DNA from: a virus
Reading direction: 5' to 3' (one strand)
Virus record (IMG/VR): IMGVR_UViG_3300037475_000199
Location: 1 to 64,000 of that record
Length of the DNA stretch: 64,000 bases
The translations under genes and the position numbers were made by a program. Positions within the stretch are counted from its first letter, which is position 1; every line of letters begins with the position of its first letter. Below are positions 16,079 through 59,658 of this stretch, piece after piece. A model generated the notes under the pieces. That model saw only the letters and a list, made by a program, of their open reading frames with translations, was not told the origin of the DNA and did not search any database.

Positions 16079-16082
16079 AAAT

Positions 16083-16177: not shown

Positions 16178-16182
16178 TTTAT

Positions 16183-23127: not shown

Positions 23128-23202
23128 CGGTAATTAACTCAGAGGTAGAGTGCTACTCTAACACGATGGAAGTCACTGGTTCAAATCCAGTATTATCGAC
23201 CA
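23128..23202 (+). tRNA. aberrant tRNA (anticodon loop CTAACAC reads AAC; Val-like duplicate?)
   Basis: Acceptor CGGTAAT pairs with ATTATCG. D-arm ACTCAGAGGTAGAGT. Weak anticodon stem CTACT/GATGG with one mismatch and two G-U pairs. T-arm ACTGG-TTCAAAT-CCAGT. CCA present. Confidence 0.4.
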
Positions 23203-28855: not shown

Positions 28856-29357
28856 AAGATCCAGAATAAAAAAAATTAGACAAAAAGTTATTGATCGTGA
28901 CGGGCTAATATGTTGTTATTGTGAAAATTTGTTATTGTTAACAGAAGTAACTATGGAACATATTGTTCCCATTTGTAAAAAGGGAACATTTAATACAACG
29001 AATTTAACTGTTGCATGTAAAGACTGTAATAATAAAAGAGACAATAAACCTTTTTTCAAATTTTGCAAAAACTTTAATTGGTCCACATCAAAAATAGATA
29101 AATATAGAAAATTATATTATAGTAATTTAAAAATTAAAATTCTTAATATTGCTAAAGAAAATTGTATTTCTGATATAGAAAAAGTAATTCCAGAAAATAT
29201 TATATCTCAATCTTGTTTGATTCTAAAAGTCAATCCTGCAAATTTTGATTCTTATTTTGCATTAGTTAGTATTTCTTCAAAAGAAACTTATACGCGGAAA
29301 GTGATAAAATTTTCTTTTGAAGAAATTATTAAAATAATTGAAAGCGAAACTCTTTGA
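28848..29357 (+). CDS. HNH endonuclease
   Basis: CCYCE...MEHIVP...NLTVACKDCNNKR is an HNH motif. Confidence 0.55.
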   Translation: MPERSRIKKIRQKVIDRDGLICCYCENLLLLTEVTMEHIVPICKKGTFNTTNLTVACKDCNNKRDNKPFFKFCKNFNWSTSKIDKYRKLYYSNLKIKILNIAKENCISDIEKVIPENIISQSCLILKVNPANFDSYFALVSISSKETYTRKVIKFSFEEIIKIIESETL

Positions 29358-33494: not shown

Positions 33495-33576
33495 TTAAAC
33501 ATATGTTTGAATCTGTTATATAGGTTCATGTTCCCAGAGAGGGAACTTTATAATTTAGACAACATGGAGAATGTTA

Positions 33577-34590
33577 ATGAAAAATTTTGAATTTTGTGTA
33601 TTTATTGGTCAATTTAGTCCATTCCATAATGGTCAATCTGCTATTCTTCAAGAAGCTTTAAATCAAGCAGAAACAGTTATTGTTGTCCTTGGTTCAGCTA
33701 AAAAGGCAAGAAACATTGAAGTTTCATGGAATGTCGAGCAACGCATTGAGATGATTAAGTCAACTCTTTCTGTCGAAGATCAGGTTCGTATTAAATTTGT
33801 TCCATTACGAGATCACATTTATAGTGATACAATTTGGGTAACTGAATTATTAGAAAAAATGACTCCCATTTTAAATGGATCAAAGAATGTTTCTTTGGTT
33901 TGTAGAGAAAAGTATAATAAAGAATATCTTAAATTGTTCCCGCAATGGGAATTAATCCCAGTTAAAACTACTGAGCCGCATCATGATGCGGAAGATATTA
34001 GACATCGTTATTTTACATATGATACATCTTATTCTCGTTTCGTTCACGAAAATGTAGCTAAGATGATGAAAGAATTTCAAGACACTCCAATCTTTCAAAC
34101 CTTAAAAAGTGACTTTGATTATGTCAAGAAATATAAGGCAGCATGGGAAGGCGCCCCATTTAAACCAATCTTTGTTACAGTAGATGCTGTAATTGTTAAA
34201 TCTGGACACGTACTTTTAGTGAAGCGTAAGGGTAATCCTGGTAAAGGGCAAATGGCATTACCAGGTGGATTTTTAGATCAAGAAGAGCTAATTGAAGATG
34301 CTGTTTTAAGAGAAGTAAAAGAAGAGACTGCTATTAAAATGTCTAAAGATGAACTTCGAGCCTGCATTACATATTCTGAAGTTTTTGATGCCAAAAATCG
34401 TTCATTGCGTGGGAGAACAATTACTCACGCATTTTTAATTGATTTAGGTTCCGGAACCCTACCAAAAGTAAAAGGTTCTGATGATGCAGAAAAAGCTTTT
34501 TGGCTTCCTTTGAACGAAGTCAAGGACCGTGAAGATGAATTTTTTGAAGATCATTTTCACATTATTAGTTCATTCACAAACAAACTATAA
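33577..34590 (+). CDS. natV: bifunctional NMN adenylyltransferase / Nudix hydrolase (NatV/NadM-Nudix type)
   Basis: N-terminal GQFSPFHNGQ is the nucleotidyltransferase (H/T)xGH-like motif. Nudix box GGFLDQEELIEDAVLREVKEETA. ATG 33577 after GGAGA. Confidence 0.6.
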   Translation: MKNFEFCVFIGQFSPFHNGQSAILQEALNQAETVIVVLGSAKKARNIEVSWNVEQRIEMIKSTLSVEDQVRIKFVPLRDHIYSDTIWVTELLEKMTPILNGSKNVSLVCREKYNKEYLKLFPQWELIPVKTTEPHHDAEDIRHRYFTYDTSYSRFVHENVAKMMKEFQDTPIFQTLKSDFDYVKKYKAAWEGAPFKPIFVTVDAVIVKSGHVLLVKRKGNPGKGQMALPGGFLDQEELIEDAVLREVKEETAIKMSKDELRACITYSEVFDAKNRSLRGRTITHAFLIDLGSGTLPKVKGSDDAEKAFWLPLNEVKDREDEFFEDHFHIISSFTNKL

Positions 34591-34633
34591 TCTTTTCAGA
34601 GAGAAAAGAAGTTAACAATACGGAGAGTACGAA

Positions 34634-36085
34634 ATGAGAACAGTAATCGCAAGAAAAGAAGACTTAGAACATAGCAACGTTACCGACACTGATAGTTACA
34701 AGTTTAGCCATTTTATTTTATATAAGAAGGCTGGCGTAACTAGAATGTTTAGTTATCTAGAGTCTCGTGGTGGTGAATTTGATGTTTCTACTATTTCAGC
34801 CCTACAAGTAGCATTACATAGATACATTGCAAAAGGATTTAAGAGAAAGGACATTGATCGTGCAGAAAAGCTTGCAGCTAAACATGGCGTCCCTTTCAAT
34901 CGTCCAGGATTTGAAGCCATGTATAACAAATATAATGGTAAGTTTCCAGTTAGAATTAGATCTATTCCTGAAGGTATGATAGTTCCAGTTTCAACTGCAC
35001 TATTAACTATTGAGTGTTGTGACGAAGATTGTTTTTGGATTGTCAATTGGCTAGAGACTTTATTATCTAGAATTTGGTATCCTTCTACTATTGCAATTGC
35101 AAGTCGTTCAGTCAAGAAACTTTGGAAGCACTTCTTAGATATGACTTCCGATAATACTGATCTCGAAATTGGATTTAAGCATCATGATTTCGGATCTAGA
35201 GGAGTAACCTGCTTTGAGCAAGCCGAATTGGGCGGTATGGCTCACTTGTTGAGCTTCTTTGGTTCTGATACTTTAGCGGGTGTTGAGCTTGCCAATTACT
35301 ACTATGATTGTGATATGTCAGGATTCTCGATTTGTGCTACTGAACATTCTACCATGACTATTTTTGGTCGTGCTGGTGAACGTCAAGCACTTATTGATTG
35401 GATTACTGAAACATTGGTTAATGTTCCAAATATTCCTGGTGTACCTAAAGTGTCTGCTTGTGTTGGTGACAGCTACAATATCTATGATTTTACTACACTA
35501 GTAAGTCGTGATGATGAGGTAAGAAACTTAATTGCTAATTCAGGGGGCACTTTAGTAGTAAGACCAGATAGCGGTAAACCATCTGAAGTTCTTCCTAAAA
35601 TATTGGAATTGTTTGAGCAAAACTTGCCATCAGGATCTATTACTGTTAATAGTAAGGGATACAAAGTTCTACCTTCATATTTGAGACTTATTTGGGGTGA
35701 TGGCATTAACCGTCGTTCAATGAAAGATATTCTTCAATTAGTAGTTGATCTTGGTTGGAGTGCATCTAATATTGCGTTAGGTTCTGGTGGCGGTTTATTG
35801 CAAGATGTTAATCGTGATACACAGAAGTTTGCTTTTAAGTGTTCGTTTGCTGAAGCAAAAGGCGTCTCAATTGATGTTCTTAAAGATCCAATCACTGATC
35901 CTGGAAAGAAATCAAAAGCGGGTCGCCTTGACACTATTAAGCTTCCAGATGGTGAAATTAAAACAGTCTCCATTGGAGTAAATGAAGAATGTCATCCTCT
36001 TAGCATTATGAATACTGTTTTTGAAATGGGAGATATTACTTATCACACTACGTTCGCTGAATGTAGAGACAGAATGGCGCTATGA
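34634..36085 (+). CDS. nadV: nicotinamide phosphoribosyltransferase (NAMPT/NadV)
   Basis: DTDSYKFSHF near the N-terminus matches the NAMPT DSYK motif. About 480 aa, the size of NadV. Confidence 0.65.
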   Translation: MRTVIARKEDLEHSNVTDTDSYKFSHFILYKKAGVTRMFSYLESRGGEFDVSTISALQVALHRYIAKGFKRKDIDRAEKLAAKHGVPFNRPGFEAMYNKYNGKFPVRIRSIPEGMIVPVSTALLTIECCDEDCFWIVNWLETLLSRIWYPSTIAIASRSVKKLWKHFLDMTSDNTDLEIGFKHHDFGSRGVTCFEQAELGGMAHLLSFFGSDTLAGVELANYYYDCDMSGFSICATEHSTMTIFGRAGERQALIDWITETLVNVPNIPGVPKVSACVGDSYNIYDFTTLVSRDDEVRNLIANSGGTLVVRPDSGKPSEVLPKILELFEQNLPSGSITVNSKGYKVLPSYLRLIWGDGINRRSMKDILQLVVDLGWSASNIALGSGGGLLQDVNRDTQKFAFKCSFAEAKGVSIDVLKDPITDPGKKSKAGRLDTIKLPDGEIKTVSIGVNEECHPLSIMNTVFEMGDITYHTTFAECRDRMAL

Positions 36086-37970: not shown

Positions 37971-38885
37971 ATGTGTAATGTACTCGTAGGCACAGCTGTT
38001 GGTGATGCTTTAGGTGTTCCATTTGAAACTTTTTTGATAAATAATCCTCTTCTTTTAGATTGGGATGGAACAACTTATCTTGGAAGTAAATATCATGGTT
38101 TAGAACCAGGTCAATACTCAGATGACACTCAACTATCTATTTTGGTTGCTAAATCATTAATATTAAATTCTGGATTTAATCCAGACGATTTAGCTGCAAG
38201 ATATCAAGATTGGTTTTTTTCTGGCGTTGCACGAGGTTATGGTAAAACAACAAAGTTAGCTATGGAAGCTCTTAAAAGTGGTAAACATTGGAATGAATCT
38301 GGGATTGCCGGCTCTTTAGGTAATGGAACGGCTATGCGTGCAGCTCCATTTGGAGTTTACTTTAGAAATGATTTTAAACAATTAATTGCTGCAGTAAAAA
38401 TAGATTCAGCAATTACGCATGTTTCAGAAGATGCTGAAGCTGGAGCTATTGCTATTGCATTAACAGCAGCTTATGCCGTTAATCGTAACACTGAAAATCT
38501 TTTAGACAAAATTTGTGAAAATTTACCAGACTGTAAAGTTAAAAAAACAATTTCTAGTTTGGATGCATTAATTAACGCAGATAATATTACTCCTCCACAA
38601 GCTTTAAGAGTATTGGGGACAAAGGCTAATGTACAAGAAACTGTGCCCGCAGCATTATATTGTTTTCTGAAATTTGATAATTATCACGATGCTGTGCTTG
38701 CTGCAATTAAAGCTGGTGGTGATACCGACACTACTGCCGCAATAGTTGGAGCTTTATTTGGAGCCAGAGATGGAATCAAAAAGATAGATAGAAAATTTTA
38801 TTCGGTAGAAGATTTTGATAAATTAATAGAGTTAGATAGCCAGCTTTATAACAGATCTAATTCATTATTTTTTCCTAGAAACTAA
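37971..38885 (+). CDS. ADP-ribosylglycohydrolase (ARH/DraG family)
   Basis: N-terminal VLVGTAVGDALGVPFE matches the ARH GdAlG...E motif. C-terminal AGGDTDTTAAIVGALFGA is the metal-binding D-T-D region. Confidence 0.6.
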   Translation: MCNVLVGTAVGDALGVPFETFLINNPLLLDWDGTTYLGSKYHGLEPGQYSDDTQLSILVAKSLILNSGFNPDDLAARYQDWFFSGVARGYGKTTKLAMEALKSGKHWNESGIAGSLGNGTAMRAAPFGVYFRNDFKQLIAAVKIDSAITHVSEDAEAGAIAIALTAAYAVNRNTENLLDKICENLPDCKVKKTISSLDALINADNITPPQALRVLGTKANVQETVPAALYCFLKFDNYHDAVLAAIKAGGDTDTTAAIVGALFGARDGIKKIDRKFYSVEDFDKLIELDSQLYNRSNSLFFPRN

Positions 38886-38914: not shown

Positions 38915-40414
38915 ATGTATAAGAAATATCCGCCTAAAAAACCAGATAATTCATATCTTGTTAAAGTAAATGTTAAACATAATTGGTCAGACTATCAAAA
39001 AGCTATTTTTAAAAGTATAGCCAAAGATACAGGACATTTAATAGTAGAAGCTTATGCTGGTAGTTCAAAAACCACTTCAGCCATTGAAAGCTTTAAATAT
39101 GTGCCAAAAGGTAAAAAAACTTTAGCATTAGCATTTAATAAAATAATTCAAGAAGAACTAAGATCTCGTAGTCCCTCTTATATTGAAACTTTTACTTTTC
39201 ATAGTTTAGGATATAGGGCTATTAAACAACGTTTTGGTAATGTTGAGTTAAATGATCATAAAGTATTTGATATTGTTTCTGAAACTTTAGATAAAAAAAC
39301 AAATTACGATCTTATAAATAATATTTGTGATACTGTTGCTTATTGCAAATATACACTTTCAGATACGCCTAAGCAAATTGAAGATTTAATTCTTAATTTT
39401 GGAATTGATACTTGTGAAATGGATGACGATAAATTTATTAAATTAGTTATTAATACTTTAGGCAAAAGTAAATCTATAACTAATAAAATAGATTTTAATG
39501 ATATGTGTTGGTTGCCGTTTGTATATAATTTACCTTTAGGTCAGTATGACTATGTTTATGTAGATGAAGCACAAGATTTAAATAAATCTCAGTTAGTAAT
39601 GGCTAAAAAAGCCAGTAAAACTAATTCTGGTAGAATAATTGTTATTATGGATCCTAATCAAGCGCTTTATTCTTGGCGCGGCGCCGATAGTACAGTAGTT
39701 GATTCTATTAAAAAAGATGAGACAACTAAATCATTACAATTACCAATATCTTATCGTTGTCCTCGATCAGTTATTGATTTGGCTAAAAAATGGGTGCCAG
39801 ATATTACTTGCCCAGAAACAGCAATAGATGGTGAAGTGTCTGATATTACCACAGACAAAATGTATGACATTGTAAAGCCTGGTTCCTTTATTTTATCAAG
39901 AACTAATGCCCCAATGATTAAAATATGTATGCTTTTAATTAAGAGAGGCATTAAAGCTAACATTCGTGGCAGAGATGTTGGAAAACAACTCAACTACTTA
40001 ATAAAGAAATCTAAAAAGAAACAAATGGCTGCTTTCTTAAAATGGTTAGAATGCTGGAAAGATGAAGAAGTTGAAAAGTTGATATCTAAAAAAATAAATA
40101 CAGATAATGTATTAGATAGATATGAATGTTTAGTGTCTTTGTGTGAAGAACACAAGACATTAGAAGAAGTTTCTGAAAAGATAGATCATTTATTTGATGA
40201 TACTGATGAAAAAAATATAGTTATTCTATCTTCTGTTCATAGAGCAAAAGGATTAGAAAGAGATAATGTCTTCATTTTAAGATGGACTTTTAGGCAATGG
40301 TTAGATGATAAGTTAGAGTTTATTGAAAAACCAAATGAAGAGGCAAATATTGCTTATGTTGCTGCTACTAGAGCAAAGAAATCACTATATATTGTTAGAA
40401 AAAGTGTAGTTTGA
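38915..40414 (+). CDS. SF1 UvrD/PcrA-like DNA helicase
   Basis: Walker A AYAGSSKTT. DEAQD box in YVYVDEAQDL. Motif VI-like VHRAKGLERDNVFIL. Confidence 0.55.
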   Translation: MYKKYPPKKPDNSYLVKVNVKHNWSDYQKAIFKSIAKDTGHLIVEAYAGSSKTTSAIESFKYVPKGKKTLALAFNKIIQEELRSRSPSYIETFTFHSLGYRAIKQRFGNVELNDHKVFDIVSETLDKKTNYDLINNICDTVAYCKYTLSDTPKQIEDLILNFGIDTCEMDDDKFIKLVINTLGKSKSITNKIDFNDMCWLPFVYNLPLGQYDYVYVDEAQDLNKSQLVMAKKASKTNSGRIIVIMDPNQALYSWRGADSTVVDSIKKDETTKSLQLPISYRCPRSVIDLAKKWVPDITCPETAIDGEVSDITTDKMYDIVKPGSFILSRTNAPMIKICMLLIKRGIKANIRGRDVGKQLNYLIKKSKKKQMAAFLKWLECWKDEEVEKLISKKINTDNVLDRYECLVSLCEEHKTLEEVSEKIDHLFDDTDEKNIVILSSVHRAKGLERDNVFILRWTFRQWLDDKLEFIEKPNEEANIAYVAATRAKKSLYIVRKSVV

Positions 40415-40444: not shown

Positions 40445-40473
40445 CATTTTTAAATGATTAGGATAGTGAAATG
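40445..40473 (+). promoter_or_regulatory. sigma70-like promoter (TTGACT-17-TAGGAT) within an ATGTG...CACAT inverted repeat
   Basis: Hexamers at the correct spacing. AAATGTGTGGTCTTGACTGCACATTT forms an inverted repeat over the -35. Confidence 0.35.
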
Positions 40474-40929
40474 GAAAACCACGAAACACCAGAAGCTATT
40501 AAAGCAAGGGCTGAACAAGCGGACCCTCTTGTTATGTATTTAATAGTAAGAGAAGAGTTAGAAATGAGTATTGGTAAAGCTTGTGCTCAATGCGCTCATG
40601 CTAGCCAAATGATCACTTTAAAATATTTGCCATTATATATTAAATATTTTGAAAAAGATATTGAGAATTCTGGTTGGATTGATAAAAGTTCATATGAAAG
40701 TTACTTAAGTTTTGTTGAATGGCTTGCCGGTTCTTTTCGTAAAGTGGTTCTTAAATCAGATGAAAAAGAATGGGTTAAAATCAAAAACGAGTTACCCAAC
40801 AACTCAATAATCGTTGTTGATGCGGGTTTAACCGAGCTTCAACCAAATACAGAAACAGTAATTGGTCTTTGGCCAATGAAAAGAAGTGAACGACCCAAAA
40901 TAATCAAAAAATTGCAAGTTTTAACATGA
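40471..40929 (+). CDS. peptidyl-tRNA hydrolase, PTH2 family
   Basis: PLVMYLIVREELEMSIGKACAQCAHAS aligns with the PTH2 core ([25 protein letters not shown]). Confidence 0.6.
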   Translation: MENHETPEAIKARAEQADPLVMYLIVREELEMSIGKACAQCAHASQMITLKYLPLYIKYFEKDIENSGWIDKSSYESYLSFVEWLAGSFRKVVLKSDEKEWVKIKNELPNNSIIVVDAGLTELQPNTETVIGLWPMKRSERPKIIKKLQVLT

Positions 40930-41255: not shown

Positions 41256-41503
41256 AAGTTATAGGATATCACCTAACTGAAATTAAAAAGGGTATTCTCG
41301 GCAAATCTTCTAAAATTCAAGAAGAGTTAGATGAATTGGTGGATGCCGAATTACAAAACAATAAAATATTAGCTTTAGTAGAGCTATCAGATTTATATGG
41401 AGCTTTGGAGGCTGTCGCTTCTTCTTACAATTGTTCTATGGATGATTTAAAGAAGATGTCTGATGCCACCAAAAGAGCGTTTACTAGCGGACATAGGAAA
41501 TGA
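41246..41503 (+). CDS. MazG-like nucleotide pyrophosphohydrolase (small all-alpha NTP-PPase)
   Basis: IQEELDELVDAELQNNKILALVELSDLYGALEAVA matches the EExxE...E..D pattern of MazG/HisE-type domains. Confidence 0.45.
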   Translation: MEIKVIGYHLTEIKKGILGKSSKIQEELDELVDAELQNNKILALVELSDLYGALEAVASSYNCSMDDLKKMSDATKRAFTSGHRK

Positions 41504-42039
41504 TTGATTATCACTTGATATCTAATTGTATTAAAAAATACGAAGATTTAGGTTACAAGTATATAGATGTTCCTTGGTTTACTACTGAAAAAATAGTTAA
41601 TATTACTTTGCCACCAGGCAAAAAACCTTTTCATATAAATAATGATTATTTAGTAGGTTCAGCAGAACAGTCTTTTTTACATTTAATTTTAGCTGGCGAA
41701 TTAAAAGATGGTAAATATGTTGCCGCTTCACCATGCTTTAGAGACGATGAAATAGATCAATATCATCAAAAATATTTTTTTAAAGTTGAACTGATTAATT
41801 ATTCCAATAGTTATAAGTTTGATTATTTTGATTTAATGAATGTTATTTCTGATGCACAAAGGACGTTATCTTCTTTATGTACCAAAACAATAAAATCTTC
41901 AAAAACAAATGAAGGCGTTGATTTATCAATAAATGATATTGAAATTGGATCATATGGTATACGACAATTTAGTAACTTTAATTGGATTTATGGAACTGGC
42001 TTGGCAGAGCCAAGATTTTCGAGTTTAAATTATGGATGA
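41500..42039 (+). CDS. mini class-II aminoacyl-tRNA-synthetase-like catalytic core
   Basis: Motif-2-like CFRDDEIDQYHQKYFFKVE (fRxE...H..F...E) and motif-3-like GTGLAEPRF (GxGxGxxR). Only 179 aa. Confidence 0.35.
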   Translation: MIDYHLISNCIKKYEDLGYKYIDVPWFTTEKIVNITLPPGKKPFHINNDYLVGSAEQSFLHLILAGELKDGKYVAASPCFRDDEIDQYHQKYFFKVELINYSNSYKFDYFDLMNVISDAQRTLSSLCTKTIKSSKTNEGVDLSINDIEIGSYGIRQFSNFNWIYGTGLAEPRFSSLNYG

Positions 42040-42667
42040 ATTTTTAATTATATCAGATGATGAAACTGAACGAAAAAGATATGCAAAAAAACTATTAAAG
42101 CAAGATTTTCTTACCAAAGAAAGTGAAAAGGCAAAAATTGCTATTACTAAGTTTTTAGAAGAAAATCCTGACATTAATATTGATTATGCCATTATTCATA
42201 TGAAAGATTCAATTTTAAGTACAATTAAATGCGCAGAAAAATTAGGAATTAGTCCAAAAGCTTTTCTTAGATTAAGAAAAAAGTATAATATTGTACCTGT
42301 CTCTGAAATTAAGAATAGTTATAAATCAAAAAGTTTTGCTCCGCATTTTTCAAAGAAAGCTACTAAGAATTTCTATAGCATTTATCAGCTAAAAAGAATT
42401 CCCAAATCAGAAATTGATTTATCTCAAAAAAGGTCGGGCAGTAATTTAAAGCTTGGAATTAAAATAAAATGGAAACCAAGAGGCTATCATTCAAATGGAA
42501 AATTAAAAGCTAGAACTGACTATTTGAGTAAATATGGATTTTTCGTTCTTTATAATCATAAAGATGATAATTATACTGTTAATAAAGATGACAAAAATAC
42601 AATTTTGTCAAAAAAAGAAGTAGATGTTTTGAATCAAAAATACTTACGATTAAAGAGCTTTGTATGA
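42032..42667 (+). CDS. hypothetical protein with RLKSFV tail
   Basis: Ends ...KYLRLKSFV. Confidence 0.4.
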   Translation: MDEFLIISDDETERKRYAKKLLKQDFLTKESEKAKIAITKFLEENPDINIDYAIIHMKDSILSTIKCAEKLGISPKAFLRLRKKYNIVPVSEIKNSYKSKSFAPHFSKKATKNFYSIYQLKRIPKSEIDLSQKRSGSNLKLGIKIKWKPRGYHSNGKLKARTDYLSKYGFFVLYNHKDDNYTVNKDDKNTILSKKEVDVLNQKYLRLKSFV

Positions 42668-43350
42668 AAATTAAATATAAAATCAAAGAAGTAAAGCCTA
42701 AAATATTTTTAGCAGAGTTTGAAGATTCTTATGACATGTGTATGACATTTTGTCGATATCAAGAATATTACGAATCACCTAATCCAAAATTTAGAAATAA
42801 AGATTTTGATATATTTACTTTCATGAAATGGTATTCTGGATTTCATGGCAAAGGAAATTTTACTTATCCTACAGATTGGGTTGGATTTAATATACCTTCA
42901 AAAATTTTAAATAAATGTATTAGTTCAATTGGCAGTGATTGGAATTGTTATGATGAAACAATGAATGATATTGTTTCCAAAATAGAAAATAAAATTTATA
43001 ATAATCCAAATCATAGCTTGGCTGTACATCAAGCTTTTAAAGAAGAAAAGTATTATCTAATTGGAGCCATGAAAGGCAGTGAAAGAACTGTTAGACATGA
43101 AGTAGCTCATGGTATGTATTATTTAAATAGTTCCTATAGAAAAGAGATGGATTATTTAGTTAATAAATTAAGCTCAAAATTCAAAAAAGATTTATTCGTA
43201 GCATTAAAGTCTGTAGGATATACAGATCAAGTTTTGATTGATGAAGCACAAGCCTTTTTATCTACTGGTTGGAGAGATTACTTTCCTAAATTAAAAAATC
43301 AAGATAAACCATTTATTTCAGTTTTTGAAAGATATTACAACGAGCCCTAA
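42664..43350 (+). CDS. hypothetical protein
   Basis: ATGA overlap. Confidence 0.4.
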   Translation: MKIKYKIKEVKPKIFLAEFEDSYDMCMTFCRYQEYYESPNPKFRNKDFDIFTFMKWYSGFHGKGNFTYPTDWVGFNIPSKILNKCISSIGSDWNCYDETMNDIVSKIENKIYNNPNHSLAVHQAFKEEKYYLIGAMKGSERTVRHEVAHGMYYLNSSYRKEMDYLVNKLSSKFKKDLFVALKSVGYTDQVLIDEAQAFLSTGWRDYFPKLKNQDKPFISVFERYYNEP

Positions 43351-43352
43351 TT

Positions 43353-44087
43353 ATGAAAAAAGAACTCTACAAGTCGATGATATCTTCTGAGGATAAAATT
43401 GCTATTTATCGTTCAGAAAAAGCAGCACATTTTATTCCTGAAAATGCTCTTGATGACATAGAAGTAATAAATTCTCCCTCCGGAAAATATTCTGTTACTG
43501 TTACCAAATACAAAACAAACAAAGAAAATAAAGTTTATACTCTGGGTTCTGTTTATTTAAATAGTAATAAACAATTGATCTCAGAGATTCAGAGAGATTA
43601 TGCTACTTTTCCACTTACGTTTGTAGAAAATCATCCAAATGGTCATGATTATTTAGTGTGTTCAGAAGATACTCAAGGTCAAACAGTAGTAGAATTAGAT
43701 ACTGGTGAAAAAGTTAGTTGGGTTCCAATTCTTGCGGGGTTTTGTTGGGTAGATATGACTCCATCACCTTCTCGCACTCTAATTGCAGTAGATGGATGTT
43801 ATTGGGCTTGCCCCTATGAGATCAAAATATATGATTTTTCAAATCCAATGAAACCACCTTTTGAGTGCTTAACTGAAGATTATAGTATTGAAAAATTCAA
43901 TGGGTGGAATGTAGATGACACTTGTTCTATTTATGTAGAATATGAAACAAGAAAATCAGATGGAAAACCAATAAAGGATTTGTCTGAAGAAGAGGAAGCT
44001 GCCCTTTATGAATTATTAGATCCTGGTCATAATCATAATGATTTATTTGGTTATAAAAACAAAGAATTTGTCTGGTCTAAATCATGA
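43353..44087 (+). CDS. hypothetical protein
   Basis: ORF only. Confidence 0.4.
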   Translation: MKKELYKSMISSEDKIAIYRSEKAAHFIPENALDDIEVINSPSGKYSVTVTKYKTNKENKVYTLGSVYLNSNKQLISEIQRDYATFPLTFVENHPNGHDYLVCSEDTQGQTVVELDTGEKVSWVPILAGFCWVDMTPSPSRTLIAVDGCYWACPYEIKIYDFSNPMKPPFECLTEDYSIEKFNGWNVDDTCSIYVEYETRKSDGKPIKDLSEEEEAALYELLDPGHNHNDLFGYKNKEFVWSKS

Positions 44088-44278
44088 ATAAAAAATATTT
44101 TGTAGTTTATTATGTTTGGGACACTTTTCGAGGGTGGAATGGTCCAATGAATATTCTTATAGATAAACATCCCTTAAAGTGGCTTAAAGAAGATAAGATT
44201 GCGTTATCAAAAGAACATAGTTGGGATGACATTTCTATTTCTTGGTGGCAATTATTAGAGGAAGATTATGACAAATAA
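44084..44278 (+). CDS. small hypothetical protein
   Basis: ATGA overlap. Confidence 0.3.
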   Translation: MNKKYFVVYYVWDTFRGWNGPMNILIDKHPLKWLKEDKIALSKEHSWDDISISWWQLLEEDYDK

Positions 44279-45029
44279 AGATAGTTTAGGCGACAGAATA
44301 AAGGCTTATGAGGATTGTTATAGAGTACAATTACCTCAAAGAATGCCAGTTATTCTTAGGGTTGATGGCAAATCATTTCATAATTATACCAAAGGTTGTA
44401 AAAGACCTGTTGACGAGAACCTTGTCAATTGTATGAATGAGACAGCAAAATATCTTTGTGAAAATATTCAGGGAGCAAAATTAGGATATGTACAATCAGA
44501 TGAAATATCTATATTATTAACTAACTATGAAACAATAAATACGCAATCATGGTTCGATAATAATTTGGTTAAAATGGTTAGCATATCTTCGGCTTTAGCT
44601 TCAGCTAAATTTACCTCTATTTCTGACACTATTTTTGGTAAGCCTAAAATGGCAGTTTTTGACAGTCGAGCTTTTGTAGTTCCAGTTAATGATGTTTGTA
44701 ATTATTTTTTATGGAGACAACAAGATTGTACCAGAAATTCAGTTCAAATGTTAGCTAGAAGTCTTTATTCTCATAAAGAATGTAATAATAAGAACAATTC
44801 TCAATTGCAAGAGATGTGCTTTCAAAAAGGTATTAATTGGAATGATTGCCCTACATCTCAAAAACGTGGTAGATGTATAATTAAACAATACAAGGTTAAA
44901 ACTGGAACTAATATTAAAACTGGCGAACAATTTTCTGCAGAACGTTCCAGTTGGGAAGTTGATAACGAAATTCCAATTTTCTCATTAGATAGAAATTATA
45001 TTAATAAACTAATAATTCTTAAAGACTAA
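44268..45029 (+). CDS. tRNA(His) guanylyltransferase Thg1-like protein (TLP)
   Basis: VILRVDGKSFHNYT compares with the Thg1 rIDGkkFH motif. KRPVDEN compares with the PxDE motif. YVQSDEISILL compares with GESDEYSFI. Confidence 0.6.
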   Translation: MTNKDSLGDRIKAYEDCYRVQLPQRMPVILRVDGKSFHNYTKGCKRPVDENLVNCMNETAKYLCENIQGAKLGYVQSDEISILLTNYETINTQSWFDNNLVKMVSISSALASAKFTSISDTIFGKPKMAVFDSRAFVVPVNDVCNYFLWRQQDCTRNSVQMLARSLYSHKECNNKNNSQLQEMCFQKGINWNDCPTSQKRGRCIIKQYKVKTGTNIKTGEQFSAERSSWEVDNEIPIFSLDRNYINKLIILKD

Positions 45030-45328
45030 GAATTCATATTATTAATATCTGATTTGGTTTTTATTTTATGGCATGATTTACATAATACCATTAAGCCAGA
45101 TGTATCGCAAAATAAACGCTCAATATATAAATCAAAAGTAGTAAATTTGCCTACTGGTATGATATGATCAACATTTATGTCTTTACGTCTAGTTGATTTC
45201 TTACATATAGCACAAGTATATAAACCATAAGATATTTTGGCTAAATTTAAAGCGCCTTGGCGTTGTTTGCTTCTGCCCCAAGTTCTACGTAGGGCGGCTT
45301 TAATATAGGCAATTGTAGATTTTCTCAT
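45026..45328 (-). CDS. free-standing HNH homing endonuclease (minus strand)
   Basis: CAICKKST...VDHIIPVGKF...LMVLCKSCHKIKT is an HNH motif. The orientation is opposite to the array. Confidence 0.55.
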   Translation of the reverse strand: MRKSTIAYIKAALRRTWGRSKQRQGALNLAKISYGLYTCAICKKSTRRKDINVDHIIPVGKFTTFDLYIERLFCDTSGLMVLCKSCHKIKTKSDINNMNS

Positions 45329-45362
45329 ACATATATTATAACTAATAAATAAAGGATTTTAA

Positions 45363-45650
45363 ATGGGCGTTGATTATTATACTTGTCAAAATTGCAGTGA
45401 TACATTTCCAGATTGTGGATACTATTTTACATGTAACGGTTGCGAAAGCATGTTTTGCTCAAACGAATGTGGTAAGAAACAAAGTGTAGATGGAAAAAAT
45501 CGCTGGAATGAAGATTTAACCTCATGTATTTTTTGTAGACATGAAGCAGTAACGGATAGAAGTGTTTTATTATTCTTGTGTAGGAAATATGGTATAACTG
45601 AAGAAGACGCAAATAAAGAGTGTTTAGAGGCTTGTAAAAATGGAAAATAA
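45363..45650 (+). CDS. Cys-rich hypothetical protein
   Basis: CQNCS...CNGC...CSNEC...CIFC motifs. Confidence 0.4.
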   Translation: MGVDYYTCQNCSDTFPDCGYYFTCNGCESMFCSNECGKKQSVDGKNRWNEDLTSCIFCRHEAVTDRSVLLFLCRKYGITEEDANKECLEACKNGK

Positions 45651-46266
45651 AGAATCTTTTAGAAATAGAATACAACCATATTTCTCCCCTGCAGTTCAAT
45701 TGGATATTAAACTTGCTTATGTATTAGCTAAATTTGGTCATCGAGCTCAAACTAGAAAAGAGCTTGATGATAATGGTAAGCCAATTAGATACTTTGAGCA
45801 TGTTAGAAGAGTTGCCATTATTCTTATGGATGATATGAAGATTATGGATGAAACAATGATCATTGCAGCTTTGCTTCATGACAGTCTAGAGGATACTTTG
45901 GATTTGACTCCCGAACTGTTAGAACACTCTTTTGGCATAGAAGCTGTCAATATAATTAAACATCTATCTAAGTGCCCTAAAGAGGGGTATCATCAAAGGT
46001 TGGCTAATTGTAGTAATTGGAAGGTTCTAGCTATTAAAGCTTGTGATAGATTAGATAATTTAAGGTCTTTAATGGTTCCAGGAACGCTTCTTAGCTTTCA
46101 AAAGAAACAAATTCAAGAAACAAAGGAAATTTATTATCCTTTATTTGACCAATTGCTTAATAGGTGCCCCTCTGAATTTAAAAACAATGTTCAATGGGTT
46201 CGCGATGAAATAAGAAGATTGGTCGAAAGATATAGTGTAATGATAGAGATGCAAGAGCAACCTTAA
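45640..46266 (+). CDS. RelA/SpoT-type HD-domain (p)ppGpp hydrolase (small alarmone hydrolase-like)
   Basis: AKFGHRAQTRK...YFEHVRRVAIIL...IIAALLHDSLEDT aligns with the SpoT HD hydrolase motifs (H..Q.R.sGePY..H...VA.iL...AALLHDvvEDT). Confidence 0.6.
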   Translation: MENKESFRNRIQPYFSPAVQLDIKLAYVLAKFGHRAQTRKELDDNGKPIRYFEHVRRVAIILMDDMKIMDETMIIAALLHDSLEDTLDLTPELLEHSFGIEAVNIIKHLSKCPKEGYHQRLANCSNWKVLAIKACDRLDNLRSLMVPGTLLSFQKKQIQETKEIYYPLFDQLLNRCPSEFKNNVQWVRDEIRRLVERYSVMIEMQEQP

Positions 46267-46282
46267 AATATATGGAGTAATC

Positions 46283-46846
46283 ATGACTTGTATTGTTGGC
46301 ATTGCTGAAAAGGGTAATGTGTATATTGGTGGAGATAGTGCTGGTGTAGGCGGATTATCTATCACCATAAGGGCAGATGAAAAAGTATTTCATAATGGTC
46401 CATTTATAATGGGGTTTACTACAAGCTTTAGAATGGGTCAATTATTAAGATATAAATTTAGCCCTCCAAAACAAACAATAAAGCAAGACGATATGGAATA
46501 TATGGTTAATGACTTTATTGACAGCGTTAGAAAGTGTTTTGCTGAAGGTGGTTGGGGTAAAGCTAGTGGTCATGATAACAATGAGGGTGGTAACTTTTTA
46601 GTAGGTTACAATGGTACCTTATATGAGATTTTTGGTGACTTTCAAGTGGCTATGCCATCTCTACAATACTCTTCTTGTGGTTGTGGCGAGGACTTAGCAT
46701 TAGGATCTTTGTATTCAACTGCAGGATTAAAGCCAGAAATAAGATTAAAGAAGGCACTTGATGCAGCTAGTCATTTTAGTGCTGGTGTTGCACCACCATA
46801 TGCCTTCGTAAAACAGCTAAGTAAGACCGCTAAATCTAAAAAATAA
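46283..46846 (+). CDS. HslV/proteasome-beta-like Ntn hydrolase
   Basis: MTCIVGIAEKGNVYIGGDSAG parallels the HslV N-terminus TTIVSVRRNGHVVIAGDGQ with Thr2. GFTTSFRMG and CGCGEDLALGSLY parallel GFAGGTADAF and IGSGGPYA. Confidence 0.45.
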   Translation: MTCIVGIAEKGNVYIGGDSAGVGGLSITIRADEKVFHNGPFIMGFTTSFRMGQLLRYKFSPPKQTIKQDDMEYMVNDFIDSVRKCFAEGGWGKASGHDNNEGGNFLVGYNGTLYEIFGDFQVAMPSLQYSSCGCGEDLALGSLYSTAGLKPEIRLKKALDAASHFSAGVAPPYAFVKQLSKTAKSKK

Positions 46847-46854
46847 TCTATCTC

Positions 46855-46883
46855 TTGACAGGTGGGCTTGACACCCTTATATT
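46855..46883 (+). promoter_or_regulatory. sigma70-like promoter (TTGACA-17-TATATT)
   Basis: TTGACA at 46855-46860 and TATATT at 46878-46883. A second TTGACA lies at 46868. Upstream of ligA. Confidence 0.45.
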
Positions 46884-46954
46884 GTCCGAGCCCACAGCGG
46901 GTTTATTTTATAAATTCAACATTTAACTGCATTGCACTTACCCAAGTAATTCAC

Positions 46955-49168: not shown

Positions 49169-49720
49169 ATGATCAGTGGTCTTAAATATATTCCCAATTT
49201 TATATCTTTAGATAATGAATTATCTTTAATTCATACTATTGACAATCAAATTTGGTCTAAAGATCTTAAAAGAAGAACTCAGCATTATGGTTATAAGTAT
49301 GATTATACTAACAAATCAATTGATGAATCTTTATATTTAGGAAGAATACCTCAGTGGTTAGAAAAATATTGTTTTAAACTTTATGATAATAAGTTTTTTG
49401 AGAAGTTGCCGGACCAAGTAATTATAAATGAATATTTGCCTGGGCAAGGAATTAATAAACATGTTGATTGCGTTCCATGTTTTGATCATACCGTTGCCTC
49501 TTTAAGCTTAAATTCAAGTTGTGTTATGTGTTTTGAAAATATTTATACGCATAAAGTTGGTGAACTGGCATTAGCACCATTAAGTTTATTGGTTTTGTCG
49601 GGCGAATCTAGATTTGAATGGATGCATTCTATTCCAGCTAGAACAAGAGATGTAATTTCTGATCAGGTTTTACCTCGTGGAAGAAGAATCTCTTTGACAT
49701 TTAGAACTGTTTTGTTATAA
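49169..49720 (+). CDS. AlkB-family 2OG-Fe(II) dioxygenase
   Basis: INEYLPGQGINKHVDCVP gives the H-x-D motif. A later H (WMHSIP) and RRISLTFR give the R-x-S motif. Confidence 0.55.
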   Translation: MISGLKYIPNFISLDNELSLIHTIDNQIWSKDLKRRTQHYGYKYDYTNKSIDESLYLGRIPQWLEKYCFKLYDNKFFEKLPDQVIINEYLPGQGINKHVDCVPCFDHTVASLSLNSSCVMCFENIYTHKVGELALAPLSLLVLSGESRFEWMHSIPARTRDVISDQVLPRGRRISLTFRTVLL

Positions 49721-50628
49721 ATTTTCCAGTCTTGTTCCCAAATAGATATAATTTTATATCCCGCCTCTATTAAAATATTTTCTCTATTTATAGTTTGTGA
49801 GTATAATTCACCAAATGTTTTATTGACAAATTTGTTAAAATCATTTGAATCAAATTTTTTAGGATTACCATGCCAATAGTCTCCATAAAATTCATAAACT
49901 ATGTTTGTAATTGGATCGAGAGCATCTACAAAATATTTTTTATTATTTATATATGATTGCCTATATTCTTGTGGTATTTGCAATTGGTTTAACCAATCAA
50001 TTTCTTGTTTTGAAATTCTGTTAATACATTTTGGACAACCTTGTCCAGATAAATGGTTATTAGGAGTTTGATTAAATTCACCATGTAATAAACAAATTAT
50101 TGTGATTTTAGTTGCATGATTTTTATATATCACTTTTGAATAATCAAATTTATCGCCATGAATGTCATTTGCTTTTACATTAAATTCTTCTAATGTTAAT
50201 CGTATGCTTTCTGAATTTTTTAGTTTGCCACATTTAGGACAACCTTTTCCACATTTATGAAGATGAGGCGTTTGCAAAAATAAACCATGTATTGGACAAA
50301 TTATTTTAATATGTTTATTTACTGAAATGTATTCAACTTCATGATAATCATAAAAATTATTATGAATTAATATAAATTCCTCAATCACATCTTTTGTTGT
50401 AAGGGTTCTGTTTTTGCCTGATGTAATTTTACTACATAATGGGCAGCCCTGACCATTTAAATGATGATTAGGTGTTTTGTAAAATTTACCATGAATTTTA
50501 CAGATTATGATTACTTTGACGCTGGAACAAATATAAATAGTTTCTGAATAATCATAAATATTATTATATATGGCATTAGCTTTTTTTAAAAAATTTTCTT
50601 GTGTAAATGCTTTGTCCATTTTAACCAT
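49663..50628 (-). CDS. homing-endonuclease-like protein: triple Zn-ribbon repeat plus Vsr/DUF559-type PD-(D/E)xK nuclease domain (minus strand)
   Basis: The motif H-G-x-F-x-Q-TP-x-x-HL-x-GQGCP-x-C occurs three times. C-terminal YEFYGDYWHGNPKKF...ISIWEQDW compares with the Vsr-like YEFDGdyWH motif. Confidence 0.5.
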   Translation of the reverse strand: MVKMDKAFTQENFLKKANAIYNNIYDYSETIYICSSVKVIIICKIHGKFYKTPNHHLNGQGCPLCSKITSGKNRTLTTKDVIEEFILIHNNFYDYHEVEYISVNKHIKIICPIHGLFLQTPHLHKCGKGCPKCGKLKNSESIRLTLEEFNVKANDIHGDKFDYSKVIYKNHATKITIICLLHGEFNQTPNNHLSGQGCPKCINRISKQEIDWLNQLQIPQEYRQSYINNKKYFVDALDPITNIVYEFYGDYWHGNPKKFDSNDFNKFVNKTFGELYSQTINRENILIEAGYKIISIWEQDWKIYNKTVLNVKEILLPRGKT

Positions 50629-54184: not shown

Positions 54185-55690
54185 ATGGCAGAGAAATTAG
54201 TTGCTTATTCGGCAGGCGAAGAACCGTCTTTTCCTGGAGATTATGATGTAGTAAAAAGGACTACATTAAATTTTACAGACATTATTAACAACAACAATAA
54301 ATATTATAATTTAGAAGTTCAAGTTGCTAAGAATGGCAGTTCAAGAATTTTTACTCAGTATGGTCGAGTAGGCGGAACGGCAGCCAAAGAATATCGAGTA
54401 GCAGCTAATCAGTCTCATGCTGAAACTGAAGCCGAAAAAATTATCAAGTCCAAAACTAAAAAGGGCTATGTTGAAGTTAAATTGGTAAAAGCTGATATTG
54501 GGTCCGAAGCAGGCAAGGCTAAAGTTGATACTTCAGCTTCTAGCGTATCAGTTGATACACTTAAAAAGATGGGTGTTAAAGTTCAGGAAGCAGAAACCAG
54601 TAAATTACATCCTGAAATTGGAGATTTAGTTAGAACTTGGTTCGGCGTTACACAGGAATTTATTGAATTAAATCTTGACACTAAAAAGTGTCCATTAGGT
54701 CAATTATCGATTGATCAAATTGATAAAGCAAAAGAAATATTAGATGAAGCTCGTTTAATTATTCATGCATCTAAACCAGATGTATTAGAATTAAATAAAT
54801 TAACTAACTCTTATTATAGTAACATTCCTCATAACTTTGGTTATGGTAGAATTAATGCCGATGTACTTCGTTTAGACAACGATGATAAGGTAAATAAAGC
54901 TTTTGATATATTAGATGTTTTTGGTTCAGCTAAAAACGTTCAAAGTGTTATTTCAAAGAAATCGGCTGTAGACTCTCAGTATGCCACTTTAAATGCTGAT
55001 TTAAATTTTATTGATCCAAAAGATCCTATTTGGAAATGGATTGACACTATGTTGCATGAGACTAAAGCTAGCAATCATCATTTCTTAGGCAAATTAAAAA
55101 CTCATAAAATTTATAAAGTAAATCGTAAAGGTGAAGAACAGTATTTTCTTAAGAATGCAGAGAAGATTGCTAAAGAATGTGGAAAGCATGATCCTTCTCC
55201 AGTTTACTCTAAATTAGTTAAATCTCGCCCAGATGTATCAAAAGAGCTAAGAGATTTGTATGCAAGAGCTAACGTTTCTCCTGGTTGGCATGGAACTCGT
55301 AGAGCTAATATGATTGGCATTACTACTAAAGGTCTTTTAATTAGACCTTCAGGTGTAGTTCATGCTGGTTCAATGTATGGTGACGGTGTTTACTGGGCTA
55401 CTAATAGTACTAAGAGCATCAATTACTGTGATGTTCGTGGCTCATATTGGGCTGCTGGTACAAATAAAACGGCTTATTTATTCTTAGGTGATGTTGCTTT
55501 TGGTAATTATAAATATGCTAATGGCTCACAATATTATAATAGAAAGAATATTTCGCCAGCACATTCTGTTTTTGCTCAAGGCGGGAAGAGCGGAGTATTG
55601 AATGACGAAATTATTACTTATACTCCATCGGGTCCAGAGCAACAACATTGTTTAAGATATATTATTGAATTCGAAACACAAGCAAAATGA
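54185..55690 (+). CDS. PARP-like ADP-ribosyltransferase (WGR domain plus PARP catalytic domain; H-Y-D variant)
   Basis: WGR-like YYNLEVQ...QYGRVGG. Catalytic WHGTRRANMIGI...GSMYGDGVYWA carries the H-G-T motif and Tyr. YLFLGDVAFGNY aligns with PARP1 LLLGEVALG, with Asp in place of the catalytic Glu. Confidence 0.6.
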   Translation: MAEKLVAYSAGEEPSFPGDYDVVKRTTLNFTDIINNNNKYYNLEVQVAKNGSSRIFTQYGRVGGTAAKEYRVAANQSHAETEAEKIIKSKTKKGYVEVKLVKADIGSEAGKAKVDTSASSVSVDTLKKMGVKVQEAETSKLHPEIGDLVRTWFGVTQEFIELNLDTKKCPLGQLSIDQIDKAKEILDEARLIIHASKPDVLELNKLTNSYYSNIPHNFGYGRINADVLRLDNDDKVNKAFDILDVFGSAKNVQSVISKKSAVDSQYATLNADLNFIDPKDPIWKWIDTMLHETKASNHHFLGKLKTHKIYKVNRKGEEQYFLKNAEKIAKECGKHDPSPVYSKLVKSRPDVSKELRDLYARANVSPGWHGTRRANMIGITTKGLLIRPSGVVHAGSMYGDGVYWATNSTKSINYCDVRGSYWAAGTNKTAYLFLGDVAFGNYKYANGSQYYNRKNISPAHSVFAQGGKSGVLNDEIITYTPSGPEQQHCLRYIIEFETQAK

Positions 55691-58388: not shown

Positions 58389-58865
58389 ATGATTACTATA
58401 ATTCAGGGAGATTTAATAGAAGCTAAAGAGAAATATTTGATCCACCAAACAAATTGTGTTTCGCATTTCGCGGCAGGTATTGCACAAACTATTTTTTCTA
58501 AATTTCCATATGCTAATGTTTATGCTAATAGAATAGAAGAAGACTTACCTGGACATATAGTTATTTGTGGTAACGGTAAAGATCAAAGATACATTGTTAA
58601 TTTAATGGGTCAGTTCTATCCTGGTGGATATTCTGAATCAGACATTGACAATGAAAAAGCACGACAACAATATTTCCACAAAGGATTACTTAGATTGGCT
58701 AAAATTCCTAATTTAGAGAGTGTTGCTTTTAATTTTAAAATTGGATGCGGAATTGGCGGAGGTAATTGGAATTGGTATAAAGGTACTCTTGAAAACTTTG
58801 CTAATTATATTGATAGTACACAAGGAGCTAAAACTTTTATCTATCAAAGAGAAGGTGACGTTTAA
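58389..58865 (+). CDS. macrodomain (ADP-ribose binding/hydrolase) protein
   Basis: ITIIQGDLIEAKEKYLIHQTNCVSHFAAGIAQ parallels the macro signature GDIT...IVNAAN..L.GGgGV. Confidence 0.55.
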   Translation: MITIIQGDLIEAKEKYLIHQTNCVSHFAAGIAQTIFSKFPYANVYANRIEEDLPGHIVICGNGKDQRYIVNLMGQFYPGGYSESDIDNEKARQQYFHKGLLRLAKIPNLESVAFNFKIGCGIGGGNWNWYKGTLENFANYIDSTQGAKTFIYQREGDV

Positions 58866-59197
58866 TGAAAAACGGATTAATAATTGATGATTATGGTACT
58901 CAAAAATGGTATAAAGAAGATCTTTTACATAAAGAAGACGGTCCTGCCGTAATCTGGAAAAGTGGAGATAAAGAATACCGCATTAATGGACAACTTCACA
59001 GAGAAGATGGTCCTGCTATTGAGTATAATAATTTTCATATGTGGTATTTTAATGATAAACTTCATAGAGTTGAAGGCGCCGCCGTCATTGACATTTTTAA
59101 TGATGAAAAAGAGTATTGGTATAAAGGAAAATCAGTTGAGGACATAGAAACTGACGAGGATTTTAAAAATTTCATCAAATTCAAGGCGTTTTGGTAA
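58865..59197 (+). CDS. MORN-repeat protein with KFKAFW tail
   Basis: LLHKEDGPA and QLHREDGPA repeats. C-terminus DEDFKNFIKFKAFW. Confidence 0.55.
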   Translation: MKNGLIIDDYGTQKWYKEDLLHKEDGPAVIWKSGDKEYRINGQLHREDGPAIEYNNFHMWYFNDKLHRVEGAAVIDIFNDEKEYWYKGKSVEDIETDEDFKNFIKFKAFW

Positions 59198-59199
59198 AC

Positions 59200-59658
59200 A
59201 TGACAATTAAGTTTTATACTTCTGCCGAACCATATGGATATTTAAATAATTTTAAAAAGTCGCCTATGTTTGTGTATGGTCGTTGGTGGAAAAATGTTGA
59301 ATCAGCTTATCAAGCACAAAAGACAATTATTCCAGAAGAATATAATAAAATTTGGTTAGCTAAACATCCAAGAGAAGCAAGAAATTTAGGACAAATAGTT
59401 CATATTAGAAAAGATTGGGATGAAATAAAAGTCTCAGTTATGTATGAATGTGTTTTAGCAAAATTTGTTCAAAATAAAGATTTTAGAAATAGATTGTTTT
59501 CTACTGGTGATGAAGAAATTGCAGAAGATTCTCCAATTGATTCATTTTGGGGATTAGGTCCAAATGGTGACGGATTAAATCATTTGGGTAAAATTCTAAT
59601 GAAAGTTAGAAGTATTTTAAGAACAAATGAATATTATGAATTATTTCAAGGATTATAA
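59200..59658 (+). CDS. NADAR (DUF1768/YbiA-like) domain protein, copy 2
   Basis: FYTSAEPYGYLNNF...VESAYQAQKT...FWGLG...LGKILMKVR matches the NADAR signature. ATG 59200, or TTG 59191. Confidence 0.6.
   Translation: MTIKFYTSAEPYGYLNNFKKSPMFVYGRWWKNVESAYQAQKTIIPEEYNKIWLAKHPREARNLGQIVHIRKDWDEIKVSVMYECVLAKFVQNKDFRNRLFSTGDEEIAEDSPIDSFWGLGPNGDGLNHLGKILMKVRSILRTNEYYELFQGL

Follow-up and report, generated by a model that had tools for sequence, protein, structure and literature searches.

The closest described relative of the gene considered here is BtTLP, a Thg1-like protein (TLP) of the bacterial type from Bacillus thuringiensis. In vitro, BtTLP repairs several kinds of 5'-truncated tRNA, and in the TLP activities characterised in the corresponding reports the acceptor stem of the tRNA always serves as primer-template (PMC3701042, PMC4820378). 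Among phages, thg1 was noted first in Bacillus phage Bc431v3 (2013; PMC3601020) and later in the Xanthomonas jumbo phage XacN1 (2018; PMC5852040), and a comparison of jumbo phages in 2021 counted Thg1 among the RNA-repair genes, with a sporadic occurrence (PMC7824862). Here we describe a thg1-like gene, and the small HNH nuclease gene that lies behind it on the opposite strand, in a 64,000-nucleotide stretch of viral DNA (positions 1 to 64,000 of IMG/VR record IMGVR_UViG_3300037475_000199), referred to below as the window. Each is an unremarkable member of a gene family that many phages are already known to carry. By tblastn, 164 GenBank phage records contain a Thg1 homologue (Bacillus 46, Prevotella 15, Caulobacter 13, Mycobacterium 11, and others); the closest homologues are 49–54% identical to the window protein, and most are annotated as tRNA-His guanylyltransferase. 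What the window adds is one intact, selectively maintained thg1 from an uncultured clade of very large phages, and an HNH gene that can be separated from it as an independent mobile cassette, which helps to correct the annotation of such genomes.

The thg1-like gene occupies positions 44268..45029 of the plus strand as a complete open reading frame (ORF) with an ATG start and an upstream GAGGAAG that resembles a Shine–Dalgarno (SD) sequence. A preliminary description of the window had delimited this ORF and the minus-strand ORF at 45026–45328, and the coordinates of both are exact, giving proteins of 253 and 100 amino acids. The three Thg1 motifs that it had named are all located in the 253-residue protein, with RVDGKSFH at residues 31–38, PVDEN at 47–51 and SDEIS at 77–81. 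The profile search that it suggested, against the PF04446 hidden Markov model, returns 99.2 bits with a gathering score of 29.2 (E 2.2e-28, profile positions 2–130 of 130), and the protein matches PHROG 4717 'tRNA-His guanylyltransferase' over residues 4–251 (E 2e-97). The top match among solved structures is BtTLP (4kgk), with E 4e-80 for residues 5–251 against 2–239; the archaeal TLP 5axk follows with E 8e-15, and the eukaryotic Thg1 structures reach only E 1e-9 to 1e-12. Pairwise alignment with BtTLP gives 52% identity over the full length.

The active site of BtTLP provides a residue-by-residue comparison. As assigned in the account of its structure, D30, D75 and E76 correspond to human THG1 D29, D76 and E77, and roles are given to E12, R16, R28, K43, S74, K99, R131, R147 and M158, with K43 and S74 belonging to the activation site and R28, K99 and R131, plus E12 and R16, to the nucleotidyl-transfer site (PMC3701042). 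In the window protein the first metal-binding carboxylate of the RVDGK motif is D33 (codon 44364..44366, plus strand), which aligns with BtTLP D30 and human THG1 D29. The SDE motif, S77-D78-E79 (codons 44496..44504, plus strand), supplies the activation-site Ser, the second metal-binding Asp and the third carboxylate, and aligns with BtTLP S74, D75 and E76. The preliminary description had named a failure of the catalytic Asp and Glu to align with Thg1 as the finding that would speak against its assignment; D33, D78 and E79 align with the carboxylates of both BtTLP and human THG1 (D29, D76 and E77). The complete set of window equivalents of the BtTLP functional residues is E15, R19, R31, D33, H38, R46, S77, D78, E79, K102, R134, R150 and M161, in which the sole change is from Lys43 to Arg46. 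In a set of 48 non-redundant homologues from viruses and metagenomes, D78 and E79 never vary (48/48), D33 is present in 46, and R31, D33, S77, K102, R134 and R150, like the other mapped residues apart from position 46, are each conserved at ≥95%. Position 46 is the one place where the active site counts against a fully equivalent enzyme: Lys43 of BtTLP contacts ATP (as described in PMC3701042), and the position holds K in 26 and R in 17 of the 48 homologues. Arg46 is a common, conservative variant and probably harmless. The dN/dS (ratio of nonsynonymous to synonymous substitution rates) of thg1 against its closest relative is 0.11, and the gene is intact and selectively maintained, with predicted activity.

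Judged by its sequence, the plus-strand gene is a bacterial-type TLP and not a eukaryotic-type Thg1, because it is so close to BtTLP, has Met161 and carries WRQQDCTRNSVQ instead of WRQVDCHINNLYN. Met161, the equivalent of BtTLP M158, sits where eukaryotic Thg1 has its activation-step Asn (ScThg1 N161), and WRQQDCTRNSVQ occupies the place of WRQVDCHINNLYN in Candida Thg1. The HINNLYN segment serves tRNA-His recognition in eukaryotic Thg1; by alignment, neither this segment nor the activation-step Asn is present in the window protein. With the eukaryotic enzymes (human 3otb, Candida albicans 3wbz, yeast) the window TLP has the fold family and the three carboxylates in common, whereas its activity is expected to be template-dependent and not tRNA-His-specific. 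With BtTLP (PDB 4kgk/4kgm) it shares the metal-binding carboxylates, the activation and nucleotidyl-transfer residues and the TLP-specific Met; apart from the substitution at position 46, it differs in a 10-residue insertion in its C-terminal part (residues 213–222) and in being phage-encoded. The PHROG 4717 genes of other phages (Bacillus phage Bc431v3 gp143, Xanthomonas phage XacN1 ORF126/585, Bacillus phage G gp378, Staphylococcus phage PMBT8) belong to the same family, and the phages that carry them are typically large, with many tRNA genes, as is the window phage. No GenBank phage is close to it; it belongs to an uncultured clade seen only in metagenomes.

The best-supported reading of the TLP's role is general repair of tRNA 5' ends, including restoration of G-1, and we regard this as probable, though well short of settled. 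By homology to BtTLP, the enzyme would first use ATP or GTP to activate a tRNA at its 5'-monophosphate and then add nucleotides in the 3'-to-5' direction, with the 3' strand of the acceptor stem as template. The outcome would be the rebuilding of 5'-truncated tRNAs, including G-1 of tRNA-His opposite C73, and the role in infection would most likely be to keep a usable pool of tRNAs, both those of the host and the phage's own, of which there are at least 17. The substrates and the repair role proposed here for the phage enzyme are extrapolated from homology, as was the tRNA-repair strategy of the preliminary description, which is already in the literature (PMC7824862, PMC5852040, PMC3601020). 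Reports of Thg1 genes in phages go back to 2013 and had already read them as RNA-repair genes, and the window leaves that picture unchanged. Phage-borne TLPs offer infection as a setting where a phenotype might show; the question of the in vivo role of bacterial-type TLPs is neither newly raised by the window copy nor newly testable through it. Translation genes surround thg1, namely those for the peptidyl-tRNA hydrolase PTH2 of archaeal/eukaryotic type (40471–40929), elongation factor Ts (25098–26006; Pfam E 3e-45) and a class II aminoacyl-tRNA synthetase (aaRS)-like protein in the window, and a PheRS-like gene in relatives. Several observations weigh against tRNA repair. A scan of ~50 window ORFs gave no gene for an RNA ligase, a polynucleotide kinase or a CCA-adding enzyme, and no experimental test of a phage TLP, by biochemistry or expression, was found in the literature searched. 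The acceptor stems are fully paired in 17/17 window tRNAs, which leaves no built-in editing substrates and rules out 5'-editing of mismatched phage tRNAs as a variant of the proposal. Finally, clustering of neighbours across 54 lineages gave no gene consistently linked to thg1, only clade-specific synteny, and guilt by association is therefore weak for this gene.

Phage annotations name the family tRNA-His guanylyltransferase, and the Thg1 family is defined by G-1 addition, both of which fit a narrower role, in which the TLP would be a dedicated maturation enzyme that adds G-1, templated by C73, to phage or host tRNA-His for charging by HisRS. In BtTLP assays with full-length tRNA-His, bacterial TLPs can indeed use tRNA-His that lacks G-1 (as reported in PMC3701042), and an ORF 2.2 kb upstream of thg1 (41500..42039) matches a PHROG labelled 'histidyl tRNA synthetase'. 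Still, we consider such a dedicated role unlikely. The window has 17 tRNA genes by ARAGORN, 15 of them confirmed by Rfam, and none is for His; nor is one present near thg1 in 97 loci or in the closest relative that looks complete (IMGVR_UViG_3300009545_000018, 447,763 bp), when its syntenic tRNA cluster is followed upstream for 20 kb. There the cluster continues with genes for Tyr, Pro, Phe, Met, Leu and Gly, and none for His, and the 9 kb beyond are free of tRNAs. The tRNA-His gene of the thg1-bearing phage XacN1 (locus L100, 48818–48894) already encodes G at -1 opposite C73, and CCA, as bacterial tRNA-His genes do. The eukaryotic recognition segment is missing from the window protein, as noted above, and the BtTLP rates of activation with ATP favour repair, with a kobs (observed rate constant) of 0.91 min^-1 for a repair substrate and ~0.0007 min^-1 for full-length tRNA-His, at differing ATP concentrations of 0.3 mM and 2 mM (PMC3701042). 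The 'HisRS' label of the upstream ORF is itself unsupported, since the best structural matches of its AlphaFold2 (AF2) model (predicted local distance difference test score, pLDDT, 96) are PylRS/SerRS catalytic domains, HisRS is absent from the top 50, and GenBank names for the family are inconsistent; we rejected a link between thg1 and this ORF on these grounds. A different substrate class, in which the TLP would extend or activate (as App- or Gpp-RNA) the 5' ends of phage transcripts or small RNAs, or take part in other quality control, has little probability in our assessment. A review of non-canonical RNA capping mentions Thg1-like enzymes (PMC8131947), and thg1 has no conserved tRNA-processing partner, but the acceptor stem is the primer-template in all TLP activities characterised in the reports cited above (PMC3701042, PMC4820378), and tRNA and translation genes are abundant in the part of the genome that holds thg1. 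That one or both of thg1 and the HNH gene are inactive remnants is very improbable. Decay does occur in the clade: at locus L012 (5983–6895; L numbers denote loci of relatives) thg1 lacks residues 1–69, carries a frameshift near its 3' end and has behind it another kind of HNH gene, 138 codons long and on the plus strand, and at L096 the surrounding module is kept and thg1 is gone, so that thg1 is dispensable in the clade. Both window ORFs, however, are full length, all their catalytic residues are intact and dN/dS is low.

Directly behind thg1 and convergent with it, on the minus strand, lies the free-standing HNH nuclease gene (45026..45328; ATG start, 100 amino acids). The preliminary description had it abutting the thg1 stop, and the contact is in fact a 4-nucleotide overlap of the stops, with the thg1 TAA at 45027–45029 and the HNH stop as the complement of 45026–45028. 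Its identification as an HNH endonuclease is also upheld. The protein scores 24.6 bits against Pfam HNH PF01844 (cut-off 21.4), though no single stretch passes alone, and 26.4 bits against HNH_5 PF14279, just under the cut-off of 27.5; it matches 13 PHROG HNH families, the best being PHROG 3106 (E 1e-14), and its CxxC/DH/CxxCH elements are intact. In a 19-member alignment of the family the invariant residues are C39, C42, D54, H55, C74, C83, C86, H87 and K90, among them the four Cys of the two zinc-binding CxxC pairs, the general base of the DH element and, following the second CxxC, the His that binds metal. The D54-H55 codons, with the general-base histidine of the motif, are at 45164..45169 (gatcat on the minus strand). 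The AF2 model has a pLDDT of 91.5, and its top Foldseek matches in the PDB are HNH nucleases, namely Gme HNH 4h9d (prob 0.93), Cap5, McrA and Hpy99I. Two points tell against the assignment. The Foldseek matches are weak (best E 0.045, TM 0.37–0.52), and where the H-N-H motif has its central Asn, the window protein and its close relatives have Gly81, with Asn only in the distant members P0047–P0049. This Asn is structural and variable across the superfamily. Nuclease activity and homing of the protein are predictions.

The family of this HNH protein comprises 45 clusters at 62–90% identity, nearly all of 97–110 amino acids and all metagenomic. Like Gme HNH 4h9d (Geobacter) and the free-standing HNH genes annotated as homing endonucleases in phages (such as those of Rheinheimera, Klebsiella and Vibrio), the window protein has ~100 amino acids and a CxxC...DH...CxxCH zinc-ribbon core and is encoded between genes; unlike them, it shows the middle Asn-to-Gly change, no extra DNA-binding domain and strong purifying selection, and it is at most 40% identical to any GenBank phage copy. 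A search of positions 43800–45900 with the Rfam families, group I and II introns included, gave no match at E ≤ 1; the HNH gene is therefore not intron-borne, and a group I intron or other RNA around it was rejected as a candidate.

The position of the HNH gene varies among syntenic relatives. The order kept in relatives is thg1, variable genes, ZnR, a gene for a SpoT/RelA-like HD hydrolase domain (45640–46266 in the window), a gene for an HslV-like peptidase (46283–46846) and LigA, and in the window the HNH gene comes after the thg1 stop and before the start of ZnR. It directly follows thg1 in the window, in L002/L025 (89% amino acid identity) and in L057. At L005/L029 it is upstream of thg1, between a PTH2-like gene and a 123-codon ORF; at L032 it is upstream of a homologue of the ORF at 42664; at L089/L090 it lies between a Pyr_excise gene and thg1; in 24 contigs (L092–95) it lies between a 175-codon ORF and LigA; at L096 it occupies a locus without thg1; and at L097 it is beside a GIY-YIG gene and a nucleoside hydrolase gene. 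L003, L004, L006, L011, L012 and L037 do not have it. Put together, the gene sits at the thg1 junction in three lineages and in at least five further contexts elsewhere, is missing from many relatives, and is antisense to its neighbours in every occupied context (at least six distinct ones). The free-standing insertion that the preliminary description had proposed is thus supported by varying position, patchy presence and the lack of an intron. Its suggested comparison with relatives lacking the HNH gene succeeded in part: it supports a mobile free-standing gene, but no empty thg1–ZnR junction was found among 87 loci (viral and metagenome contigs with Thg1). At L037, thg1 is followed by 214 nucleotides and then the HD gene, with neither HNH nor ZnR. 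The limits of the cassette accordingly rest on comparison of occupied sites.

When nine HNH copies are aligned with 160-nucleotide flanks, similarity runs from ~20 nucleotides before the ATG to the stop codon. It is confined to the ORF and this short upstream stretch, and the mobile unit in the window therefore spans ~45026–45350. The AT-rich element of ~20 nucleotides (45329..45350, minus strand; TTAGTTATAATATATGT directly before the ATG) travels with the ORF and is the only non-coding sequence conserved between sites; across copies it is of the type TGTTATATTATATAT-ATG. It may serve the gene as a promoter of its own, which would leave at most a very short leader; a Shine–Dalgarno sequence is absent. 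It contains a sigma-70-like TTTAAA-17-TATAAT, though promoter-like matches in the region occur at chance level. The upstream motif was rejected as a general phage promoter, as the window holds no excess of it (29 matches, with 38.8 expected). The HNH gene is thus a self-contained mobile cassette, functionally unlinked to thg1, and we propose that, within this phage clade, the ORF with its ~20 upstream nucleotides has changed places among the intergenic slots of a single ~10-kb module of the genome. The break in the assembly at the HNH gene was rejected as a sign of population polymorphism, as the two Logan contigs concerned merely overlap by 28 identical nucleotides.

By the substitution data the insertion is old and under purifying selection, not fresh. 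Across six copies the dN/dS of HNH is 0.08–0.19. Between the window and L002, its synonymous divergence (dS) is 1.07 with a dN/dS of 0.076, as low as that of LigA, and the dS values of the flanking genes are 1.49 for thg1, 1.23 for ZnR, 1.63 for HD and 1.38 for LigA (1.2–2.2 for neighbouring core genes overall). The dS of HNH is like that of the flanking genes, and the cassette has therefore occupied the thg1/ZnR junction for longer than the lineage of the window has been separate from those of two relatives. These same values do not single out homing, since a domesticated gene and a still-active homing endonuclease would both be expected to show them, and dS near that of the core neighbours gives no indication of recent spread. 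The gene might then be a phage nuclease that excludes co-infecting relatives, degrades host DNA or processes DNA, and that happens to sit in a recombination-prone slot, in place of a selfish homing endonuclease. The near-constant length of the family across its clusters and the closest structural match, a small stand-alone nicking HNH (4h9d), also fit such a nuclease. Against it, the position shifts between close relatives with syntenic flanks, many relatives do without the gene, it is always antisense with its own short upstream element, and GenBank homologues are annotated as homing endonucleases, though at 34–40% identity only; moreover, a homing endonuclease that is still moving should likewise retain its activity. 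On balance we hold domestication to be a tentative alternative, with a substantial but clearly minor share of the probability, and keep to the mobile cassette. A bolder proposal makes the TLP a counter-defence enzyme. In it, the TLP would form a translation-rescue module with PTH2, the phage tRNAs and the minimal aaRS-like protein and would rebuild the 5' acceptor ends of tRNAs, including G-1 of host tRNA-His, after a host nuclease had trimmed them; if true, it would be the first defined physiological role for bacterial-type TLPs. Independently of this, HNH might be a domesticated, locally hopping nuclease in competition between co-infecting phages and not a purely selfish element. We consider these bolder readings unlikely.

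The source of the window is an uncultured jumbo phage of a clade of ~350–450 kb that is known only from metagenomes. Megablast of positions 43300–46900 against GenBank phages gave no match, and the LigA of the window is only ~31% identical to that of any isolate. Its nearest relatives are contigs from IMG/VR and from JGI metagenomes; several measure 350–450 kb, and their Thg1 identities are 57–77%; the exact window Thg1 protein is also encoded on an 11.9-kb Logan contig from run SRR12917118. The window has 31% G+C, is 91% coding and carries 107 of its 111 ORFs on the plus strand, with 22 four-nucleotide gene overlaps and SD-like motifs before 31% of starts (9% in the control). The SD-like motifs, the four-nucleotide overlaps and the coding density with its strand bias fit a prokaryotic virus, and origin from a eukaryotic giant virus was rejected on these grounds. 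As regards the tRNA genes, A is found at the wobble position of Ser-AGA (15891–15980) and Val-AAC (23128–23202), and of Phe-AAA in relative L098. ARAGORN further reports a tRNA-Ile(TAT) at 1548–1622 and a 97-nucleotide tRNA-like sequence with an 8-nucleotide anticodon loop at 16082–16178, both below the Rfam tRNA threshold.

Several neighbours of thg1 deserve mention. The ORF at 41500–42039 (plus strand) encodes a 179-residue minimal class II aaRS-like catalytic core in which motifs 1–3 are recognisable; it matches PHROG 4806 with E 1.6e-45, has no PDB sequence match, and belongs to a family with 276 GenBank phage records and >885 metagenome proteins. The ORF at 42664–43350 (plus strand) encodes a 228-residue protein that contains HEVAH, an HExxH-like motif, and matches nothing in Pfam or PHROG, and its homologue is the commonest upstream neighbour of thg1 within the clade (7 lineages, sometimes adjacent). 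A monomeric, mitochondrial-type PheRS-like gene (tRNA-synt_2d + FDX-ACB) lies directly 3' of thg1 at L005 (6776–7867) and is also found at L006, L012, L089 and L096; it is missing at the corresponding place in the window. In a more distant clade with shorter Thg1 homologues of ~43% identity (L016, 2989–6994, and L017–L022), NAMPT precedes thg1, and genes for a metallophosphoesterase and an AAA_33 P-loop kinase follow it. These last two could be an RNA end-healing (Pnkp-like) pair, a reading that is speculative because AAA_33 covers many kinases. The cultured phage XacN1 also shares genes for a Band-7 protein and for a GTP pyrophosphokinase-like protein, both inside its tRNA region, an arrangement that recalls the window.

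Nuclease genes heavily colonise this phage genome, and the surroundings of thg1 attract them in the clade. The window has at least five further HNH/endonuclease VII-like genes on the plus strand (2948–3478, 11458–12033, 17397–17726, 21623–22324 and 28848–29357), and at 49663–50628 on the minus strand a gene for a 321-residue endonuclease with treble-clef zinc fingers (PHROG 681/559, E 6e-52). In a 397-kb relative (L089, 6822–8333) the UvrD-like helicase carries an intein (Pfam Intein_splicing); none appears in the window's UvrD-like copy (38915–40414), as judged from precomputed Pfam matches to the identical gene of the Logan contig. Finally, genes for NAD (nicotinamide adenine dinucleotide) and ADP-ribose metabolism are dense in the window, at 12095–12592, 33571–36085, 37971–38885, 54185–55690, 58389–58865 and 59191–59658. 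The set comprises a fusion of nicotinamide mononucleotide adenylyltransferase and Nudix, NAMPT, an ADP-ribosylglycohydrolase, two NADAR proteins, a weak macro-domain match and a eukaryote-like PARP with WGR, PARP regulatory and PARP catalytic domains, and it looks like NAD salvage together with control of ADP-ribosylation, possibly in counter-defence.

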